Counted from the stretch's first letter, positions 42,844 through 51,946 are shown. The stretch is 64,000 bases of DNA from Candidatus Poribacteria bacterium (GCA_965205025.1 CBDBFU010000003.1:1-64000), one strand, 5' to 3'. Numbers and translations: made by a program. The notes: a model not told the origin generated them from the sequence alone.

Positions 42844-44790
42844 ATGAAATATATTTATCTATATCTACTGTTTTTGTTAGTTGCTACATCTGTTTTTGCA
42901 CAAGAAATCACATTCTCCACAACAGACTATCGACAGGACATGTTATTATCAAACGAACCAAATGTTATCGGTTTTGAAGGTTCATCTGTGATAGTTGAAT
43001 TTGAAACGATAATTGATGCACCAACCAGTGTTGTCTACTATGGAGTTCCACATACAGAAGATTACTTGACAACACCGCGATATCGTAAGAGTGCTTTGGG
43101 AATACATATTGATGAAAAGAAAACCGAACATCAAATAAAGATTGACGTATCTAAGCTTGAAGATGTTCATTACGATACGGGTCTAATTAAAGGGAATGGA
43201 GGCACTATAGTTTACCGAATTGAGGTATTCGATTCCCGTGTAAATACAACTCGTGCGTATGATCGTAGATTAAAGTATAAAAGAGAAGGAGATCCAAAAA
43301 CAGGGATCTATTCTACTCTTACAACGATCACAGAAGGTCCATTTATTGATCTCCTAACTCATAATTCAGCAGTTATATCCTGGATGACAGATAAACCTAC
43401 TGAAGGAATTGTCAGGATATATACACAGGATAAGACCAATACCCTAACTGAAAAAGAAGACTTTTCCTCTAAAGAAGATAGTACACATCATGAGGTAACT
43501 GTGGCAAATCTTCAACCCGATACAACCTATTTCTACCAAATTTATACTGATGAGTTTTCCAATACTTATCCCTTCAAAACCGCCCCGATACCAGGGAATG
43601 CATCCACATTCAAGTTTGGATTTATGTCAGATTCACGTGCAGGTGTAGGAGGAGGAGAACGTGCTCAGAACGGAGTCAATGCAAAAGATTTAGGACGATT
43701 TGCAATAGAACTCTACACTAAGAAAGCTGATTTTGTTTGTTTTGGAGGGGATTTAATCAACGGATATACATCCGATGTATGGGATTTTACTTCACAACTG
43801 AAAACTTGGAAACGTACTATACAACCTGTTGGCGCGCTTATCCCTTTTTATGAATCAATTGGGAATCATGAGCAGGTTGGAACATATTACACAGTGAAAT
43901 CTTCAGACATGAAACAGGATGAAAATTACATACAATTCGCAGGCACCGTTGGTGAGAATAGTGCTGAGAATATATTTGCAAAAGAATTTGTAAATCCAAC
44001 AGGTAGTTTTTATGGACACGGCATACCAGACCCAGAGAGGAAATGGAGTTCCAACATCGGTGGTAAGGATATTGGTCCATCCTACGAAGAGAATGTCTAT
44101 TCATTTAATTATGGTAGGATACATTTTATATCTCTAAATAGTAATTATTGGACAACAGGTTATAGAAGTCAAAGTAAATTTGGACAAAAGTCCCAGGATA
44201 AAGATGCTATCAATCTTGCCCTAAATCTTTTTGGTGGAAACAGGGAAGGTTATTTGATGAATTACCAGTTGAATTGGTTAAAAAAGGAATTAGATGCAGC
44301 ACAAAACGATTCAAAAATTGATTGGATATTTATCATATTGCACGAACCGCCATTTCCAAATGGTGGACATGTAAAAGATGCAATGTATTGGGGGACACCA
44401 GGACAGGGTGAACTTGGCGGATATAACGATATAGATGCTCCGATAGGAGATGTAATTGATATGCGGAATAGGTTTTGGACAGTCGTATCCAGTAAATCTA
44501 AAGTCTTAGGAGTTTTATGTGGGGATGAACACAACTATAGCAGAACATTAATCGATTCTTCACTGAATCCAGAATTCAAACATCCCGTATGGCAAATTAT
44601 CAGTGGTGGATGTGGGGCTCCCTATTATGTACAAGATAAATCTGTTCCTTGGGTAGACAATGTCAGAGCATTTACTATTGATAAACATTTCTGTTTGTTC
44701 TCAGTTGATAATAAACAGATAGGTTTGGAAGTCTATAATGATAATAGTCAACTGTTGGATAGCATACCTGATTTAACAAATATTCGATAG
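42844..44790 (+). CDS. Exported purple-acid-phosphatase-like metallophosphoesterase with FN3 domain
   Basis: Signal peptide; SDSR, GDL, GNHE and GDEHNY motifs; FN3-like HEVTVANLQPDTTYFY. Confidence 0.88.
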   Translation: MKYIYLYLLFLLVATSVFAQEITFSTTDYRQDMLLSNEPNVIGFEGSSVIVEFETIIDAPTSVVYYGVPHTEDYLTTPRYRKSALGIHIDEKKTEHQIKIDVSKLEDVHYDTGLIKGNGGTIVYRIEVFDSRVNTTRAYDRRLKYKREGDPKTGIYSTLTTITEGPFIDLLTHNSAVISWMTDKPTEGIVRIYTQDKTNTLTEKEDFSSKEDSTHHEVTVANLQPDTTYFYQIYTDEFSNTYPFKTAPIPGNASTFKFGFMSDSRAGVGGGERAQNGVNAKDLGRFAIELYTKKADFVCFGGDLINGYTSDVWDFTSQLKTWKRTIQPVGALIPFYESIGNHEQVGTYYTVKSSDMKQDENYIQFAGTVGENSAENIFAKEFVNPTGSFYGHGIPDPERKWSSNIGGKDIGPSYEENVYSFNYGRIHFISLNSNYWTTGYRSQSKFGQKSQDKDAINLALNLFGGNREGYLMNYQLNWLKKELDAAQNDSKIDWIFIILHEPPFPNGGHVKDAMYWGTPGQGELGGYNDIDAPIGDVIDMRNRFWTVVSSKSKVLGVLCGDEHNYSRTLIDSSLNPEFKHPVWQIISGGCGAPYYVQDKSVPWVDNVRAFTIDKHFCLFSVDNKQIGLEVYNDNSQLLDSIPDLTNIR

Positions 44791-44814
44791 GATGCTATTT
44801 ATGAAAGTTAAATC

Positions 44815-44953
44815 GGCTCGGTTAGATGAGGATTTAGTAAATATTTCGGTAATTCTAATTTTCCCAGACCCGGTAGGTGCGGTTTCCTAACCGCACTGGA
44901 TTTTTTCCAAAACTACCGATTTAAAAAATTAATCTTCATGAAACCGAGCCTAC
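44815..44953. mobile_element. GTAG REP split in its loop by a 114-bp element (44826-44939) that itself carries a REP
   Basis: GGCTCGGTTAG | insert | GAAACCGAGCCTAC; insert ends ATGAGGATT/AATCTTCAT; inner REP GGTAGGTGCGGTTTCCTAACCGCAC. Confidence 0.8.
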
Positions 44954-44967
44954 CAATGGGTGGGAAA

Positions 44968-44986
44968 GATCGGAATCCCCTCCTAC
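44968..44986 (-). repeat. GTAG-type REP half
   Basis: Reverse complement GTAGGAGGGGATTCCGATC; resembles 63028 and 58220. Confidence 0.55.
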
Positions 44987-45109
44987 GGAAGAGGTTAATG
45001 CTTAAATTGACGCTTATGAATCAACAAAATAAATATATAGTATTGTCTAAATTTCGTAACAATTGTTTGTTATAATACAGTATATAGAAATACCGTCATA
45101 GGAATTATT

Positions 45110-46036
45110 TTGACTGTTATGTTTTTCAGAAAAAACTTCGTTATTCTCATGAACCTAATTATTCTTGTATGTGCAATTTTTTTCATTGGTTGCTCTTCAA
45201 ATTCGAGTGGTGAAAATGGATCACAGAAAACAGAACGATCCGTTATCAGAAATAAGGGGTCGGATACAATGGTAAATTTAGCTCAGGCATGGGCAGAGGA
45301 GTATGACGAGGTGTCCACCACTATTTCTGTCTCAGTGTCAGGGGGCGGTTCTGGAACAGGAGTTGCAGCATTAATCAATGGAACAGTAGACATAGCTAAC
45401 TGCAGTAGACAAATAAAAGAAAAAGAAAAGCAGCAGGCATTAGATAACACAGGAAAAGAACCGATAGAATTTATTGTCGGATATGATGCATTGGCTGTAT
45501 ATGTACATAAAGATAATCCACTCTCACAAGTTACAATACCGCAACTCGCCGAGATATATGGAGAAGATGGTGAACTCAAGAAGTGGAACCAATTGGGTAT
45601 AGCAAATTCTGGATGTAAAAGTGATAAGATAATACGCATTAGTCGGCAATCCAACTCCGGGACTTTTTTCTATTTTAGAGAAGCACTTTTGGGAAAAAAC
45701 CGAGATTTTGAATTGGGGTCATTGGACTTACACGGGTCAAAGGATGTTGTGGAGGTAGTAGGTCGTACACCTTGTGCTATCGGTTATAGCGGCATGGGAT
45801 ATGCCACCGAACATGTGAAAATGTTAGAAGTTGCAACAGACAACAATGTCCTATACTATGCTCCGAATCTTGACAATGTAATTGCCAAAACATACCCTAT
45901 CGCACGACCATTATATATGTATTCACTTGGCGTACCAGAAGGAGCATCAAAAATATATCTTGATTGGATCTTGTCTGAGGATGGTCAAAAAATCGTTGAA
46001 AAACTTGGGTTTGTACCCTTAACGAAGAATCAATAA
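45110..46036 (+). CDS. pstS: Phosphate ABC transporter substrate-binding lipoprotein
   Basis: IGC lipobox; GSDT, GGGSGTG, SR, RQSNSGT and YPIARPLY motifs. Confidence 0.93.
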   Translation: MTVMFFRKNFVILMNLIILVCAIFFIGCSSNSSGENGSQKTERSVIRNKGSDTMVNLAQAWAEEYDEVSTTISVSVSGGGSGTGVAALINGTVDIANCSRQIKEKEKQQALDNTGKEPIEFIVGYDALAVYVHKDNPLSQVTIPQLAEIYGEDGELKKWNQLGIANSGCKSDKIIRISRQSNSGTFFYFREALLGKNRDFELGSLDLHGSKDVVEVVGRTPCAIGYSGMGYATEHVKMLEVATDNNVLYYAPNLDNVIAKTYPIARPLYMYSLGVPEGASKIYLDWILSEDGQKIVEKLGFVPLTKNQ

Positions 46037-46087
46037 GATCTACATATCTACTCTCACAACAAAATTGATCTCAATAGTTAAATCTTA

Positions 46088-46990
46088 ATGAGTAAACAAC
46101 CTAATAAAACTACAAACCGTCCATTTTCTGAAATAGTCATAGAACTTTTCATTCGCCTCTGTGGGATTAGTTCGATAATATTTGTTTTTGGAATTTTCTT
46201 CTTTGTATTTAAAGAGGGGGCAAGTTTTCTATTTAATGGATTGAATCTTTGGGAGTTTTTAACAAGCGAAGAATGGTATCCGACATCGCTAAACAACATA
46301 AGGTATGGTACTTTAGCTTTAATATTGGGTACATTCAGTGTAACTGTCTTAGCGATGTTAATGGCAGTTCCATTTGGACTTGGTGCTGCTATTTTTGTCT
46401 CAGAGTTCTGTTCCCCCAAATTAAGAGAGACATTCAAAATAGTTATAGAATTACTTGCTGCGATTCCTTCTGTTGTCTGGGGTTTCATCGGTTTGACTTT
46501 GATGAATCAACTGATTATCCAAGTATTTAATGCTCCAATCGGTTTGACTATGCTCAACGGTAGCATCATGCTTGCGTTAATGAGTGTTCCGATCATTGTC
46601 TCTATCGCTGAAGACGCACTAAAAGCGGTACCTGACTCCTATCGTGAAGCAGCCGAGGCACTTGGTGCAACGAGATGGCAGGTCATCTACCGTGTGTTAT
46701 TACCCGCTGCAAAGAATGGGTTATTGGCAGCTGTCTTACTTGGAGCAGCCAGATCTATCGGTGAAACAATGGCAGTATTAATGGCGACAGGGCATTCAGT
46801 GAATATCCCTACAAGTCCGTTATCTTGGATTCGCACACTGACTGCTACGATTGCTGCTGAATTAGGAGAGGTAGCGAGAGGGGGAGAACATTGGCAAGTA
46901 CTATTCATCATCGGTATCCTTCTATTCAGCATCACATTCATTGTGAATTTAATTGCAGATTTAGTTATCAAAGGGATACGCCAAAGTTAA
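46088..46990 (+). CDS. pstC: Phosphate ABC transporter permease PstC
   Basis: ELLAAIPSVV, EAA loop and RSIGETMAV motifs. Confidence 0.93.
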   Translation: MSKQPNKTTNRPFSEIVIELFIRLCGISSIIFVFGIFFFVFKEGASFLFNGLNLWEFLTSEEWYPTSLNNIRYGTLALILGTFSVTVLAMLMAVPFGLGAAIFVSEFCSPKLRETFKIVIELLAAIPSVVWGFIGLTLMNQLIIQVFNAPIGLTMLNGSIMLALMSVPIIVSIAEDALKAVPDSYREAAEALGATRWQVIYRVLLPAAKNGLLAAVLLGAARSIGETMAVLMATGHSVNIPTSPLSWIRTLTATIAAELGEVARGGEHWQVLFIIGILLFSITFIVNLIADLVIKGIRQS

Positions 46991-47011
46991 ACTCAGAGAA
47001 TAAAGCAAATT

Positions 47012-47929
47012 ATGGATGTAAATACCGACATATCACCAGAATTAATGTTTACCGAATCTCAAATAGGTAGACGGAACAGGTACATTGAAAATGGTGTGAA
47101 GATATTCTTCCTGATAATGACCTGTCTGATGATACTTCCACTACTTCTAATTATTGGGTATCTTTTCTATAAAGCATATCCAGGACTGTCATTCGAATTT
47201 TTATTCACAAATCCAAAAGACAATATGCGGGCGGGTGGGGTATGGGCACCGTTATTAGGTACAATTTATTTGGTTGTAGTTTCACTTGTGGTTGCTGCAC
47301 CCATTGGAGTCTTTTCTGCAGTATACCTAAATGAGTATGCAAGGGATAATTGGTTTACCCGAATAGTGAATTTGGCAGTCGTGAATCTTGCTGGTGTCCC
47401 AAGCATAGTTCATGCCTTATTTGGTGTAGGAGCATTTGTTCTATTCGCCGGTTTTGGGGAATCTATTTTGGCGGCTTCCCTCACATTAGCAATTATGACT
47501 CTCCCTGTAATCATTGCAAGTACGAAAGAAGCCTTAAACGCCGTACCCATGTCGTTCAGAGAAGCGTGTTGGAATTTAGGTGCAACCCGTTGGCAAACAA
47601 TTCGACGAATTGTTCTCCCCAATTCTATTAGTGGGATCTTGACAGGTGTTATCTTACAAGTTTCTCGTGCTGCTGGTGAAACAGCCCCTATCATGTTTAC
47701 AGGAGCAGTATTCTATAAGGCTATTCCTGAAGGGAATCCCTTTGCCTATCATATTATGGACCAGTGTATGGCACTCTCACTACATCTTTATACCATTTCT
47801 ACCCAGGCTCGAGATGTACCCGATATAATAATTTATGGAACAGCAATTGTACTTGTAGGGATTGTTCTCTTTGTCAATGCCGCAGCAATATGTGTTCGTG
47901 TATATCTTAGAACTCGGAAGAAATGGTAA
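47012..47929 (+). CDS. pstA: Phosphate ABC transporter permease PstA
   Basis: YLNEYA, LAGVPSIV and RAAGETAP motifs. Confidence 0.93.
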   Translation: MDVNTDISPELMFTESQIGRRNRYIENGVKIFFLIMTCLMILPLLLIIGYLFYKAYPGLSFEFLFTNPKDNMRAGGVWAPLLGTIYLVVVSLVVAAPIGVFSAVYLNEYARDNWFTRIVNLAVVNLAGVPSIVHALFGVGAFVLFAGFGESILAASLTLAIMTLPVIIASTKEALNAVPMSFREACWNLGATRWQTIRRIVLPNSISGILTGVILQVSRAAGETAPIMFTGAVFYKAIPEGNPFAYHIMDQCMALSLHLYTISTQARDVPDIIIYGTAIVLVGIVLFVNAAAICVRVYLRTRKKW

Positions 47930-47966
47930 TTGTTTTATTATTACAATAAACATCTTGATATAACTG

Positions 47967-48728
47967 ATGAACAATCACTTAAATAACGAACAAACCGATA
48001 AAAAACAGCGATTGGCCGGTATAGTTGAAAATACTGTATTTAATATTATAATTCAACTACTCATTCTCGGTTCAGCAATCGCTTTTGTACTTGAAACTGA
48101 GCCAGAATTAGCAGAGTATAATTCATACTTTCTGATAGCAGATTGGTCTTTTCTTATCTTATTTACGTTAGAGTATGCATTACGTATATATGCTGCCCCG
48201 GATAAGAAGGCTTTCATCTTTAGTTTTTTCGGTTTAGTGGACCTAATTGCAATTCTACCATCGCTCGTGCTAATTCCTGGATTGGGACATCTACCCGGTT
48301 TTCATGTTTTACGTGTATTAAGATTCTTACGTGTATTCAGAATCTTTAAAGCAACCCGTTTTATTTTAGCGGTAGATAGGATGATAGACGCATTAGCGGA
48401 GGTAAGAAGGGAACTCCTTGCTCTTGTGATTTTATCTGCCATGATGGTTTATCTGTCTGCCTGTGGTATCTACTACTTTGAAAAGGTGGCTCAACCTGAG
48501 CATTTTGGCACAATTCCAAAATCAATGTGGTGGGCAATTGTATCACTCACAACAATTGGTTATGGTGATGCTTATCCAATTACACCCGGGGGAAAAGTCT
48601 TCACTGCGTTTGTAGCATTAGTTGGGGTTGGACTCATTGCCATTCCCTCTGGATTGTTAGCCTCTGTTTTAACAGAAGCAAGAGTGGAGGAAAGATTGGA
48701 GGAAGAACATGATAATAGGAATGACTAA
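47967..48728 (+). CDS. 6-TM voltage-gated potassium channel
   Basis: S4 segment LRVLRFLRVFRIFK; WWAIVSLTTIGYGD filter. Confidence 0.92.
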   Translation: MNNHLNNEQTDKKQRLAGIVENTVFNIIIQLLILGSAIAFVLETEPELAEYNSYFLIADWSFLILFTLEYALRIYAAPDKKAFIFSFFGLVDLIAILPSLVLIPGLGHLPGFHVLRVLRFLRVFRIFKATRFILAVDRMIDALAEVRRELLALVILSAMMVYLSACGIYYFEKVAQPEHFGTIPKSMWWAIVSLTTIGYGDAYPITPGGKVFTAFVALVGVGLIAIPSGLLASVLTEARVEERLEEEHDNRND

Positions 48729-49056
48729 TCAGAATTTTCTAAGAATAACCATAGCTTTGGTTGTAATTTCATTTGTAATAGTTTTTCTCTCTGGTTGTGG
48801 AATTTACTTCTTTGAAAAAGATATACAACCTGAAGTATTTGGTTCAGTGTTGAATTCTGTCACCTATACTTTATTGATATATACAACAATTGGTTATGTA
48901 AATACTGCACCTGTTACATTAGGGGGTACAATAATGAGTTCCATGGTGGCATTTGTTGGTTCTATTATAGGGATACTGTTTTTAGTTAACATAATCATTG
49001 GAACATTACGAACCTGTACAATAATACGTCGAGAAACTAAGAAACTTTTTGGATAA
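48709..49056 (+). CDS. Pore-only (2-TM) channel paralog with altered filter TTIGYVN
   Basis: GCGIYFFEKDIQPEVFGS matches ACGIYYFEKVAQPEHFGT of the upstream gene; GGAGG RBS; overlapping start. Confidence 0.75.
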   Translation: MIIGMTNQNFLRITIALVVISFVIVFLSGCGIYFFEKDIQPEVFGSVLNSVTYTLLIYTTIGYVNTAPVTLGGTIMSSMVAFVGSIIGILFLVNIIIGTLRTCTIIRRETKKLFG

Positions 49057-49072
49057 TTGAGTAAAGGGAATA

Positions 49073-49828
49073 GTGATAAACAAAATTGAGATTGCAGATC
49101 TTAGGGTTCATTATGGAGATATACCCGCACTAAATGGTATATCTTTTAATGTAATTGAGAATGAAATACTTGGGATCATCGGTCCAGCACAATCTGGGAA
49201 AACCACACTATTAAAAGCAATTAATCGAACTCTCGATTTTACACAAGGTGTAACAATCCAAGGTTCGGTAAAACTGGACGGAATTGATGTCAGCTCAATT
49301 AGGGATGTCTACGGATTACGGAAAAGGATTGGCATGGTCTTACCATTGCCTGTCGGTTTACCTCTATCAATTTACGATAACGTAGCATTTGCCCCAAGAA
49401 CATCAGGACTTCGAAACAAAGCTGAATTAGATGTTATCGTTGAACGATGCCTACATCAGGCTGCATTATGGGATGAAGTTAAGGATAGATTAGATTCACT
49501 GGGAACAAAATTATCGGGTGGTCAACAACAAAGATTGACGATCGCAAGAGCACTATCCCATCAACCTGAAATTCTATGCTTGGATGAATTCTCTATCGCT
49601 GTTGATCCAATTACAACCATGCGGATTGAAGAAGTACTGAATACATTAAAAAATGAGATGACTATTCTGCTGGTAACCAACCTTGTTCAACAAGCAAAAA
49701 GGTTAGCAAATCGTACAGCATTTATGTTAAATGGTGATCTGATAGAAATTGATGACACAGAAGTGATTTTTTCAGAGAATCCCGCACAACAATCAACTTA
49801 CGATTATATCAACGGTAATTTTGGATAA
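49073..49828 (+). CDS. pstB: Phosphate ABC transporter ATPase, copy 1
   Basis: GPAQSGKT; LSGGQQQRL; DEFS; H-loop reads VTNL. Confidence 0.88.
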   Translation: MINKIEIADLRVHYGDIPALNGISFNVIENEILGIIGPAQSGKTTLLKAINRTLDFTQGVTIQGSVKLDGIDVSSIRDVYGLRKRIGMVLPLPVGLPLSIYDNVAFAPRTSGLRNKAELDVIVERCLHQAALWDEVKDRLDSLGTKLSGGQQQRLTIARALSHQPEILCLDEFSIAVDPITTMRIEEVLNTLKNEMTILLVTNLVQQAKRLANRTAFMLNGDLIEIDDTEVIFSENPAQQSTYDYINGNFG

Positions 49829-49886
49829 CATAGAATTATTCCATAAATAAATTTGCTTCATATAACTGAAGTGGGACGAAGTTCAA

Positions 49887-50660
49887 TTGGATACGAATAA
49901 CTACTGTATTGAAACTGAGAATCTTAATCTATGGTATGGGGATTTCCAAGCCTTAATAGATGTTACTGTAAGAATCCCTGAAGGACAGATTACATCTCTA
50001 ATTGGACCATCTGGTTGTGGAAAAACTACACTGCTTAGATGTTTTAATCGGGTAAATGAACGTTACGGGAACGTAACTACTAAAGGTGAAATACATATTT
50101 TAGGGAAAAACATCTACGATCCTGATGTTTCACTCTTAGAACTGAGAAAAACTGTCGGAATGGTGTTTCAAAGACCAAATCCACTCCCAATTTCTGTGTA
50201 TGATAACATTCTTTTCGGTATTCGTATTCATTCTCAATTTAGAAGTCTAACACGGTCCCAATCAGATGAAATCGTTGAGGAAGCACTTACCTCTGTATTT
50301 CTGTGGGATGATTTAAAGGATAAACTTAAGACAAAAGCGACTTCGTTACAATTAGAACAACAACAGAAACTCTGCATTGCAAGACTCTTACCTCTTAAGC
50401 CGAAGGTCATCCTGATGGATGAACCATGTTCAGCACTCGATGCAAAAGGAACGCAAGCAGTCGAAGAATTGATGTCTATCCTCGAAGGATCATATACGTT
50501 TCTAATAGTCACTCATAATATGGCACAGGCTCGACGTGTAAGTAAGGAGTGTATTTTTATGTTTCTTGGAGAATTAATAGAACACAAAGATACACAGACA
50601 CTATTTGAATCACCTGAACATGAGAGAACTGCTGATTATGTCCAGATGCGATATGGTTAA
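49887..50660 (+). CDS. pstB: Phosphate ABC transporter ATPase, copy 2
   Basis: GPSGCGKT; VFQRPNP; signature LQLEQQQKL; DEPCSALD; VTHN. Confidence 0.9.
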   Translation: MDTNNYCIETENLNLWYGDFQALIDVTVRIPEGQITSLIGPSGCGKTTLLRCFNRVNERYGNVTTKGEIHILGKNIYDPDVSLLELRKTVGMVFQRPNPLPISVYDNILFGIRIHSQFRSLTRSQSDEIVEEALTSVFLWDDLKDKLKTKATSLQLEQQQKLCIARLLPLKPKVILMDEPCSALDAKGTQAVEELMSILEGSYTFLIVTHNMAQARRVSKECIFMFLGELIEHKDTQTLFESPEHERTADYVQMRYG

Positions 50661-50802
50661 GTTGCAATAAACAAACTACACTTTGACAATTTTCATAGAT
50701 TTCCCAAACATCATTGCTAAACAATTATTCAATTCAAAGGGAGATTAACAACCAAATTTTTGTTCCCAGTCTAGTATAATTCAATCTTGACATCCAATTA
50801 TC

Positions 50803-51531
50803 ATGGACAAGACAAAACTGCTTTTTAATTCAGTTGCAGTTCTAATTCTAATAATAGTCCTATTTGTATACTTGATTCTAACATTCAAAGTTCCAACGGT
50901 TGATAGTGAATTTAGTTTCGAGAGAATGAACATCAACCGAATAAACTTATTGAAGGTACGGTTGTTGTGGATGATTCCTGTCTTGTGTGCGGCAATAGTC
51001 CTGAGTATTGTGTTGGCGTTTGTTATAGAGGAATGGCTACCAACAACAAATTTAATTCGTAGGATTATTGTTCCTCAAATTGCCATACTGTCAGGTATAC
51101 CATCAATTATCTATGGAATATTTGCTATCTATTATCTTGTATTTAATTTGATTTCCTCCTCGAATACAAGTCTTGCTATTATTGTCATTCTGTTGGTAAT
51201 CCCACTTACAACTTTGTCCGCTCAAAATGCTATTAGAAATGTTGACATATCAATCCGACATGCAGCGTATGCAGTTGGTGCTACGAAATGGCAGGTAATC
51301 TTTGATCATGTATTACCACTTTCACTAATTGAAATCTTGGGTGGTATCTGTCACACAATATCACGAGTACTGTCAGTTGCAGCATTTTGTATATTAGTAT
51401 CAATTATGATGGAATCTCCAATTAATGAACAAACAGTCATAAACATAATATACAATATTGGAATTTTACTTGTGTTGGTATTGTTATTCAGTTTTATATC
51501 AACTTTTCTGAAGAAAAATCCAAATAGATAA
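50803..51531 (+). CDS. Divergent PstA-like permease
   Basis: LSGIPSIIYGIF and HAAYAVGATKWQ..HVLP motifs. Confidence 0.75.
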   Translation: MDKTKLLFNSVAVLILIIVLFVYLILTFKVPTVDSEFSFERMNINRINLLKVRLLWMIPVLCAAIVLSIVLAFVIEEWLPTTNLIRRIIVPQIAILSGIPSIIYGIFAIYYLVFNLISSSNTSLAIIVILLVIPLTTLSAQNAIRNVDISIRHAAYAVGATKWQVIFDHVLPLSLIEILGGICHTISRVLSVAAFCILVSIMMESPINEQTVINIIYNIGILLVLVLLFSFISTFLKKNPNR

Positions 51532-51676
51532 GGAGAGTAGGCATCAGTGTTATTATGCAACTGATGCAGGAACTCAAAAAGAATCAGTCAATTCAACAGT
51601 ATGAATGTCGTTAATGCAATCTCCGTATAGAATTCGTTGGAAATCTGCCTTTACCGGATTATTCAATCAGAATCTT

Positions 51677-51905
51677 ATACCATTTCTATAGATTATTGTC
51701 TAATTAGGCGGTTATTATCGTAGTCATTTTTCAGGTCACAAACTGAATGAGGATTAAGTTTTAAATTCGGTAATTCCCATTTTCCCAAACTTGGTAGGTT
51801 CGGTTTCCTAACCGAACCGAATTTCTAACACATTACCGAATTATTATTTTAATCTTCATAAAGTTTGTGGTACAAAAAAGAGACATTTTCAATTAGAAAT
51901 GGTAT
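51677..51905. mobile_element. Nested composite element with perfect 12-bp TIR ATACCATTTCTA
   Basis: TIRs at 51677-51688 and 51894-51905; inside, a CACAAACT/AGTTTGTG hairpin split by a 113-bp element (51747-51859) homologous to 44826-44939. Confidence 0.8.
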
Positions 51906-51946
51906 TAGGTAAGAATCAACATACAATATTTCCATTGGTATAATCT

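Follow-up and report, generated by a model that had tools for sequence, protein, structure and literature searches.

Questions raised by the locus

The window, a 64,000-nt stretch of the genome of a Candidatus Poribacteria bacterium (GCA_965205025.1 CBDBFU010000003.1:1-64000), contains two homologous elements of about 113 bp, each lying in the loop of a different hairpin. What is this element, which enzyme moves it and how is its target chosen? The original prediction, made from sequence alone, was of a non-autonomous mobile element that recognises hairpin structure and brings a new hairpin target with each jump. The explanation that we favour, and hold as a whole to be highly probable, is that the elements are MITEs of an IS630-family insertion sequence (IS) whose clade inserts at hairpin tips irrespective of the stem sequence.

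The two copies in the window

Copy 1 (114 bp, 44826..44939, + strand) has terminal inverted repeats (TIRs) of ~28 nt at 44826-44853 and 44912-44939. Its host is a REP of the GTAG-REP family (222 copies), with the stem CTCGGTT/AACCGAG. The left half of the host (44815..44825, +) consists of the stem arm GGCTCGGTT and the loop bases AG, and the right half (44940..44953, +) of the loop bases GA, the arm AACCGAGCC and then TAC. Copy 1 also holds an internal GTAG REP hairpin (44872..44896, +), a TGC/GCA stem variant with a TCCT loop.

Copy 2 (113 bp, 51747..51859, +) has its internal GTAG REP hairpin at 51793..51817 (+) in a TTC/GAA stem variant, and 100%-identity copies at C13:32905 and C13:148275. 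The different hairpin that it was predicted to occupy turns out to be the central hairpin of another MITE, whose TIR is that of a second IS630-like IS. The left arm of this outer host (51677..51746, unstranded) has the TIR ATACCATTTCTA.., the hairpin arm CACAAACT (51737-51744) and the retained loop bases GA (51745-51746). The right arm (51860..51905, also unstranded) has the retained loop bases AA, the hairpin arm AGTTTGTG at 51862-51869 and the TIR ..TAGAAATGGTAT. Copy 2's flank group has 12 copies, among which homology begins at the ATACCATTT end.

Both copies are intergenic and are present as predicted, with the ends ATGAGGATT..AATCTTCAT, the inner pair TTCGGTAAT / (T/C)TACCGA and the central REP all confirmed. 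They are 77% identical by BLASTN over 114 nt, and a MAFFT alignment gives 80% mean column identity with the unrelated flanks counted in. With two dots standing for the element, as in all junctions below, the flanks read GGCTCGGTTAG..GAAACCGAGCCTAC at copy 1 and CACAAACTGA..AAAGTTTGTG at copy 2, so that each copy is bordered by an identical base (G..G and A..A, respectively). The 25-nt REP pattern occurs twice in the window and not once in 100 shuffles; the 9-nt end motif by itself does not reach significance (36 window matches with at most one mismatch, 29.5 expected). Compensatory changes in the REP stem (paired G and C in one copy, T and A in the other) are real and general: of the 222 REPs with this form in the genome, 160 have Watson-Crick pairs at all three stem positions that vary, and these represent seven different paired variants.

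Family and parent IS

The family has ~130 copies in the 5.66-Mb genome, and the prediction of a non-autonomous mobile element is supported. BLASTN of the genome found 89 full-length MITE copies, and a scan for paired ends found 129 elements: 13 of ~101 bp, 51 of 113-116 bp, 34 of 143-148 bp, seven IS and 24 others. The non-coding forms of 101-148 bp (98 copies in three size classes) have TIRs in common with the IS, in keeping with the definition of MITEs; size variants other than that of the window copies have the same ends and different cores.

The IS, found elsewhere in the genome, is 1241 bp long, with one ORF and the same ~28-bp TIRs as the MITEs. The right end of copy 1 (element positions 89-114) matches its ends over 26 nt at 96-100%. 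The 113-bp elements are MITEs of this IS. A RAYT, IS110 or IS200/605 gene had been predicted as the partner, but the MITE ends are those of an IS630-family DDE transposon. Its 384-aa transposase contains the Pfam domains DDE_3 (1.4e-22; 80.6 bits, cut-off 28.6), HTH_32, HTH_29 and HTH_23, and matches the NCBIfam IS630 equivalog NF033545 (transpos_IS630) over residues 32-367 with 181.7 bits (cut-off 100). In the NCBIfam scan IS630 alone was above threshold, an IS481 match being sub-threshold. Eight copies of the transposase ORF are listed at 100% identity over residues 1-384, and seven complete pairs of IS TIRs were found.

Residues D191, D273 and E334 are invariant across nine clade members and, from their motif context, probably form the catalytic acidic triad. 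The second D and the E are 60 residues apart, unlike the ~34-35 residues of the classical IS630 family. A protein search with the transposase gave 736 clusters; among the 120 listed, identity is 59-100% and no name goes beyond 'transposase'. There was no phmmer match among PDB sequences at E <= 1, and an AlphaFold model from the 9-sequence alignment (mean pLDDT 54.7) was too poor for use. Most likely the transposase moves the MITEs in trans through the common TIRs.

Insertion into hairpin loops

When flanks were tabulated genome-wide for the BLASTN copies, as the original prediction had suggested, they proved to be mostly hairpins, not random sequence, and the element was not limited to two positions. 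A perfect stem of at least 7 bp flanks 76 of 89 copies (85%), compared with 0.675% of 20,000 random positions, and one of at least 6 bp flanks 108 of the 129 paired elements, including all seven complete IS. Those lacking such a stem (21 of 129) are mostly of the 'other' size class, in which the ends may be mispaired or rearranged. In 66 of 81 cases the element has exactly two unpaired bases on either side.

Stem sequences, unrelated to one another, number well over a dozen across the 53 distinct hairpin sites that are occupied. The targets include REPs, hairpins at the centre of other MITEs, a hairpin module GAATGNC and palindromes present in single copy. The element is precisely associated with hairpins, and its presence in the loops of many unrelated ones strongly supports a target chosen by structure, not sequence, as first proposed. 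Both orientations are about equally frequent (GA..AA 14, TT..TC 12), as expected from a two-fold symmetric target. The hairpin association is conserved in related genomes: of the related IS copies there (59-84% amino acid identity), 37 of 39 and 42 of 44 are placed in hairpins. The predicted self-nesting system fared less well: only one of 129 elements lies within the central REP of another copy, so that delivery of its own next target is a minor effect.

The insertions are not all independent, many being in repeated hosts, e.g. the 12 copies within copy 2's outer MITE type. In the sequencing runs contigs break at MITEs. All four runs contain a joint 51745>51860, by which 114 nt are skipped, with sides of at most 48 nt; it is not locus-specific because the sides fall within the repeated host MITE.

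Junctions and empty sites

Unoccupied paralogues were found for 34 of the 53 sites. Compared with these, occupied loops are one base longer where the paralogue has 3 nt, of equal length where it has 4 and one base shorter where it has 5. At 30 of the 34 sites an empty loop starts and ends with the two bases retained on each side; the fitting sites number 17, 7 and 10 for loops of 3, 4 and 5 nt, respectively, where one site may count under several lengths. MITEs and IS have the same flank pattern. According to loop length there is a 1-nt duplication, none or a 1-nt loss. For GAATGAC stems every empty loop is 5 nt long (ATTTA, TAAAT, CTAAT, ATTAA), and occupied sites read AT..TA, TA..AT, CT..AT and AT..AA. 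In one of the related genomes the host repeat has 238 unoccupied pattern matches; the 100 that were listed have loops of 3 nt without exception (GTA in 96), and occupied repeats read GT..TA.

Four of the 34 sites with empties break the two-base rule. Among exceptions, TTCC loops are occupied as TTC..CC, and in one related genome eight of the 44 sites have TG..CA or the like, for which the 50 empty sites listed there offer no counterpart with a 4-nt loop.

The same single base, which may be any base, stands on both sides of 107 of 123 elements. The predicted lack of duplication holds only in part: the commonest REP loop, TCCT (167 of 222), would restore copy 1's host unchanged, but empty paralogues that match each host exactly (2 for copy 1, 23 for copy 2) are one base shorter, and the outcome depends on loop length. 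Several fixed rules were rejected. Of 68 distinct sites, 9 have an exact empty counterpart under 'always no duplication' and 19 under 'always 1-nt duplication', and neither rule covers 5-nt-loop hosts. The canonical TA duplication was not found, the flanks not being TA..TA, and a TA duplication with shifted ends suits just the T..A sites, which are a minority.

Empty sites exist in related genomes as well. At the orthologous position in three of them the hairpin of C28:188069 exists without an insertion, and at C4:82552 the nearest relative has GGATT-TAC-AATC where this genome has GATT-TA..AC-AATC around a MITE. For copy 1 no orthologous empty site was found, the intergenic region not being conserved in the relatives compared, and several further loci, repeat-rich or rearranged, gave no usable one. 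The direction of the 5-nt loop relation is read from paralogue comparison; that these loops are excision footprints, excision having added a base instead of insertion removing one, is less likely since TAAAT/ATTTA occurs 54 times and TATAT/ATATA never.

How the target is recognised

In the favoured explanation the transposase clade does not use the usual TA target and inserts at the tip of short inverted repeats with a 3-5-nt spacer, through two symmetric junctions that each mostly leave two loop bases beside the stem. Such junctions would give a 3-nt loop a 1-nt duplication, leave a 4-nt loop unchanged and remove the middle base of a 5-nt loop. As to the physical mechanism, we tentatively suggest, with slightly more doubt than confidence, that the target is bound as an extruded hairpin or cruciform and that each strand transfer is measured from the stem. 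Perhaps, then, this IS630/Tc1-mariner clade swapped TA recognition for the capture of extruded tips, with strand transfer two nt from the stem on each strand, so that the 'target duplication' would be +1, 0 or -1 by loop length. In duplex DNA, short stems of 5-9 bp should not readily extrude as cruciforms.

An unlikely alternative, though the best of those considered, is recognition of sequence in duplex DNA (a degenerate loop motif or an AT-rich bendable centre), palindromy being incidental because the preferred hosts are palindromic repeats. Some loops do seem to be favoured: the GAATGCC family has 47 empty ATAA/TTAT loops and no occupied one, while TA..AT and AT..TA are common, and occupation in the CACAAACT family is far more frequent for 3-nt loops than for the 53 TTCC/GGAA loops. 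However, the retained dinucleotides are diverse (on one side TT, GA, AT, TC, TA, AA, GG, AG and GT) with no common motif, the stems have no common sequence, and the apparent stagger varies with loop length, which fixed duplex geometry would not predict.

It is more improbable still that survival and not choice accounts for the pattern, insertion being wide and persistence limited to harmless intergenic hairpins or repeats. Purifying selection acts against genic insertions generally, and all hosts seen, like those of the window copies, are intergenic repeats or gene-end palindromes. Selection cannot, however, account for single-nucleotide precision, with two bases kept per side; the same precision is found in all seven IS copies, which are recent given their identical or near-identical transposases, and in 42 of 44 copies of another genome, and non-hairpin intergenic DNA is abundant here.

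We give almost no credence to movement of a REP-type element by a RAYT, IS200/IS605 or IS110 enzyme: the element contains a GTAG REP, the genome has three Y1_Tnp genes, and IS110 and IS3 members are known to target REPs, but the 28-bp TIRs are identical to those of the DDE_3 IS, the REP is absent from 5 of 6 displayed copies of the 101-bp variant with the same ends and target pattern, and no GTAG REP was found within 1.5 kb of the genome's only Y1/HUH genes (three copies, contig C27). Equally hard to credit is that the flanking inverted repeats are the element's own variable outer TIRs or were made by insertion; they bracket every copy, and local alignment of IS ends extends into the flanks, but IS with identical protein and TIRs have different flanking stems, and the same hairpins are unoccupied in many paralogues and in the three related genomes, which refutes it.

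Comparison with known systems

Insertion at hairpin tips by an IS630-family transposase combines a familiar enzyme with an unfamiliar target. The IS resembles IS630/Tc1-mariner elements such as ISY100 of Synechocystis in its N-terminal HTH pair with DDE_3, its IS630 equivalog match, its single ORF, its length of ~1.2 kb, its TIRs and its MITE derivatives. ISY100 is reported to insert almost exclusively at TA, which is duplicated; here, in contrast, TA is neither needed nor duplicated, and insertion into a hairpin loop has a +1, 0 or -1 outcome. We found no published hairpin-loop targeting by an IS630/Tc1-mariner transposase in a search of the openly accessible literature, and the term 'hairpin' is absent from a 2024 MITE review.

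The closest analogue of the hairpin targeting is IS1272/TnSha1 of staphylococci (IS1182 family), a behavioural resemblance alone. IS1272 is reported to use hairpin targets with no primary-sequence consensus, with insertion in both orientations and no target duplication, and to make cuts in the stem that delete part of the hairpin or 'replace' the inverted repeat. Its transposase is of another family, and here the stem stays whole, the element lying in the loop with two bases between it and either arm. IS1397 and ISKpn1 (IS3), ISPpu9, ISPpu10, ISPa11 and IS621 (IS110) insert into REP palindromes (Tobes and Pareja 2006, and others), and IS110 target choice is RNA-guided and sequence-specific; each is specific for one host REP family, unlike the present elements, which use many unrelated hairpins. 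The 2006 survey names IS3, IS110, IS4, IS256 and IS5, and IS630 is absent from it. With RAG1/2, a DDE-type enzyme, hairpin or cruciform targets are reported to stimulate integration in vitro strongly, and the four tip bases to modulate it. That system is eukaryotic, without sequence relation, and the integration is an in vitro side reaction, whereas here we see a natural, conserved rule of a proliferating IS and its MITEs.

REPIN/RAYT systems are similar in that internal and host REPs have GTAG plus a hairpin, high copy number and compensatory stem variants. They differ in that each 113-bp element has one REP, not an inverted pair, and IS630-type TIRs, and a REP-flanked RAYT was not found. Derivatives of IS200/IS605 or IS110 have no TIRs, and are marked by subterminal hairpins and an HUH enzyme, or by a DEDD enzyme whose target is sequence-guided; the elements here end in 28-bp TIRs identical to those of the DDE_3 IS.

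Implications

Tc1/mariner/IS630 elements serve as the textbook example of targeting by a simple sequence, TA. If the proposed targeting is true, structure-measured integration would be a mode not described for this superfamily, and a natural clade that reads DNA shape would show how a DDE transposase can be retargeted. The transposase might then serve as a tool that integrates at a set position of any designed palindrome, and the system would be a tractable one for hairpin and cruciform formation in living bacteria. For annotation, the repeats that look 'REP-like' and those that look 'MITE-like' in these genomes stand to each other as target and invader. The IS and its MITEs could, on the same condition, colonise any REP, terminator or other MITE irrespective of sequence, which would account for the layered repeats (MITE in MITE in REP) of repeat-rich genomes.

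Element family and parent IS

Two elements of about 113 bp lie in intergenic DNA of the window, copy 1 at 44826-44939 and copy 2 at 51747-51859, and, as the original prediction had it, both have the same terminal sequences, with an inverted pair further in and a GTAG-type REP in the middle. They are 77% identical within the elements and unalignable in the flanking DNA. Whereas the REP pattern greatly exceeds chance expectation, with 2 matches in the window versus 0 in 100 shuffles, the end motif of 9 nt does not when taken by itself (36 matches, 29.5 expected).

The genome containing the window (C3:1-64000 in a total of 5.66 Mb, 33 contigs, about 38% G+C) holds 89 full-length copies, found by BLASTN with the two window copies as queries, nearly all of which are bracketed by an inverted repeat not belonging to the element. 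A scan for paired ends yielded 129 elements, of which 13 measure about 101 bp, 51 are 113-116 bp long, 34 are 143-148 bp long, 7 span 1241-1244 bp and 24 have other lengths. The 1241-bp elements carry one 384-aa ORF and the same terminal inverted repeat of about 28 bp as the short forms, which are therefore MITEs of this IS. The encoded protein is an IS630-family transposase, with Pfam matches to DDE_3 plus three HTH families and an NCBIfam NF033545 score of 181.7 bits (cut-off 100). Eight copies of the ORF are listed at 100% identity to the query across all 384 residues; the closest transposases in named records (70-84% identity) are from Candidatus Poribacteria MAGs. Within this clade D191, D273 and E334 are invariant, and the second D and the E are spaced by 60 residues through a conserved insertion of about 25 residues, a candidate target-sensing part.

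A RAYT, IS110 or IS200/605 enzyme had been proposed as the mover, and the IS630-family transposase encoded between the same repeats does not support this. Three near-identical 170-aa open frames on another contig (C27:72631-72975, 86996-87340 and 53137-53481) match Y1_Tnp (PF01797, 100 bits). They sit in repeat-rich DNA, no more than 35 kb apart, and the 1.5 kb on either side of each is free of GTAG REPs.

The cores differ between MITE size forms. In the 113-116-bp form the core holds one REP; in the 144-bp form, a GAATGC hairpin module joined to a REP; and in most of the 101-bp copies displayed, an unrelated GC-rich hairpin. The family of the internal REP, which has a 4-nt TCCT loop, numbers 222 copies in the genome; in 160 of these the three variable positions of the stem are all paired, with seven paired combinations represented, so that the compensatory change is real. 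A hairpin module, GAATGNC-loop-GNCATTCATACC, is found genome-wide (e.g. C20:97650-98980 and C2:364190-365510), often in tandem with itself, beside TTGATTCC repeats, and fused to a truncated REP (..CCTAACC-ACGGGGAATGC..); its loop length (4 or 5 nt) tracks the stem variant.

Summed contig depth in the bins holding the two MITEs (window 44703-45003 and 51626-51926) was hundreds-fold above the flanks in all four sequencing runs, and contigs from these runs end inside MITEs, which thus fragment short-read assemblies of the organism.

Hairpin targets

A perfect stem of at least 7 bp, required within 8 nt of the junctions, brackets 76 of the 89 copies, as against 0.675% of 20,000 random genome positions. 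With stems of at least 6 bp the figures are 81/89 and 2.5%, and in the paired-end set 108/129, made up of 11/13 in the ~101-bp class, 48/51 in the 113-116-bp class, 31/34 in the 143-148-bp class, all seven complete ISs and 11/24 of the other sizes. The occupied stems are diverse. Among them are those of GTAG REPs, of the GAATGNC module and of the CACAAACT hairpin in the middle of other MITEs, along with single-copy palindromes, for example TCTGTGTGT, TACCGTAT, AAACATAAT and GGCACGGT. The central inference of the original prediction, targeting by structure rather than sequence, is strongly supported by the stem frequency and this diversity. Both orientations are used (GA|AA 14 versus TT|TC 12, the bar separating the loop bases left and right of the element). 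In some MITE copies just one flank carries a hairpin arm (C14:125823-125966, C15:305852-305962), a pattern suggestive of post-insertion recombination or deletion between copies.

REPs are one target class among several. Of the 129 elements, only one is nested in the REP carried by a different copy of the same MITE, with a further handful in solo REPs, and the self-nesting system once envisaged finds no support in these numbers. Copy 2 is hosted by the central hairpin of an outer MITE of about 115 bp (window 51677-51905), in the orientation opposite to the 11 other copies of its flank group. The ends of this outer MITE, ATACCATTT..AAATGGTAT, are identical to the ends of another IS630-like IS, a distant one of about 1160 bp with four copies in the genome (C15:265689-266850, C24:58913-60073, C12:314566-315728 and C9:166412-167571); its protein shares just 23.6% identity with the hairpin-targeting transposase. 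The MITE of one IS630 lineage thus supplies hairpin targets to another lineage.

Empty sites and the junction rule

Empty copies of the occupied hairpins are common in the genome: for 34 of the 53 distinct sites that are occupied there is an unfilled paralogue of identical 9+9-nt context. Two single-copy sites also have unoccupied counterparts in relatives. The hairpin that hosts the MITE at C28:188069 occurs unfilled in three of them, with stems differing at a few positions and with different loops, and C4:82552 reads GATT-TA|MITE|AC-AATC here versus GGATT-TAC-AATC in the nearest relative; the remaining orthologous comparisons gave no information, as the intergenic DNA lacks conservation. Judged from these sequence comparisons, the hairpin targets pre-date insertion.

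Of the 81 copies whose stem reaches 6 bp, 66 have exactly two unpaired bases on each side, and the same base is found on both sides in 107/123 elements (52/68 distinct sites). No one fixed duplication suits every site: exact empties are obtained by removing one base at 19 sites and none at 9. Empties of the CACAAACT family have the 3-nt loops TCC, TTC, TTT, GTT and their complements, and its occupied sites read TC|CC, TT|TC, TT|TT and GT|TT. GAATGAC stems have 5-nt loops in 17/17 empties, and their occupied sites retain the outer two bases of the same loops, even for rare variants (CTAAT becoming CT|AT and ATTAA becoming AT|AA). Two bases kept on each side account for 30 of the 34 sites with empty paralogues, 4 being misfits; the fitting sites number 17 with 3-nt, 7 with 4-nt and 10 with 5-nt loops, where one site may count under several lengths. 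An exception is TTCC loops occupied as TTC|CC. Applied across 3-, 4- and 5-nt loops, the two-base rule gives an apparent stagger of +1, 0 and -1, and a strict no-duplication rule is not supported. The host hairpin of copy 1 is compatible with the TCCT loop of the majority, without change, and also with a TCT variant (+1); that of copy 2 has 23 exact empties, all with a 3-nt loop.

The 5-nt relation may be read as a base lost on insertion or as one gained on excision, and its direction is one that we infer. TAAAT/ATTTA loops occur 54 times and TATAT/ATATA never, which speaks against symmetric excision footprints.

Related genomes

Hairpins hold 10/10 copies of related ISs in related genome G005 (transposase identity 82%), 14/15 in related genome G041 (59%), 8/8 in a second genus of another family (68-69%) and 5/6 in other relatives (60-84%), a total of 37/39, with the same base on both sides in 30/39. 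In G041 the repeat serving as host is CAGTCCC-GTA-GGGAC, a pattern matched by 238 empty sites; the loop is 3 nt long in each of the 100 listed, GTA in 96 of them, and occupied copies read GT|TA.

In a related 6.7-Mb record, 42 of 44 IS copies with both ends found lie in hairpins, mostly GTAG REPs. Among the empty REPs listed, 49/50 have a 3-nt loop, most commonly TGC/GCA; the TGG/CCA loop corresponds to TG|GG, the most frequent form among occupied sites. In eight of the 44, a G on one flank faces a C on the other, six of them being TG|CA on REP-type hairpins. This group, to which loci L119, L140, L149, L152 and L161 belong, has no 4-nt-loop counterpart among the listed empties, and fits neither a one-base duplication nor the two-base rule.

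Discussion

The data establish an IS630-type DDE transposase, ends common to the IS and its MITEs, and structure-correlated, nucleotide-precise insertion in both orientations. The +1, 0 and -1 outcomes would not be expected from a fixed stagger on ordinary duplex DNA. The transposase might instead bind an extruded form of the palindrome, either a cruciform or hairpins that arise while the DNA is transiently single-stranded; the 3′ ends of the transposon would each attack their own strand two nucleotides upstream of the 3′ arm, and repair would then fill, seal or trim the leftover base. It counts against an extruded target that short stems extrude poorly, and the distance between the two hairpin tips of a cruciform also argues against it; a two-step or replication-coupled route is possible.

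ISY100, the IS630 member that has been studied, uses TA as its target and duplicates it, whereas the present elements enter hairpin loops with +1, 0 or -1. A survey by Tobes & Pareja (2006) lists REP-targeting ISs from the IS3, IS110, IS4, IS256 and IS5 families, IS630 not being among them. For RAG, hairpin tips are reported to stimulate transposition in vitro. IS1272 and TnSha1 (IS1182 family) target hairpins with no sequence consensus and no duplication but delete part of the stem-loop, whereas the present elements sit two bases from each arm. Literature searches, with ISfinder, TnPedia and subscription journals outside their scope, returned no report of hairpin-loop targeting by the IS630 family, nor did a term search of a 2024 MITE review. 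What emerges is an IS630-family IS and its MITEs with an unusual and conserved target rule, and one that is testable.
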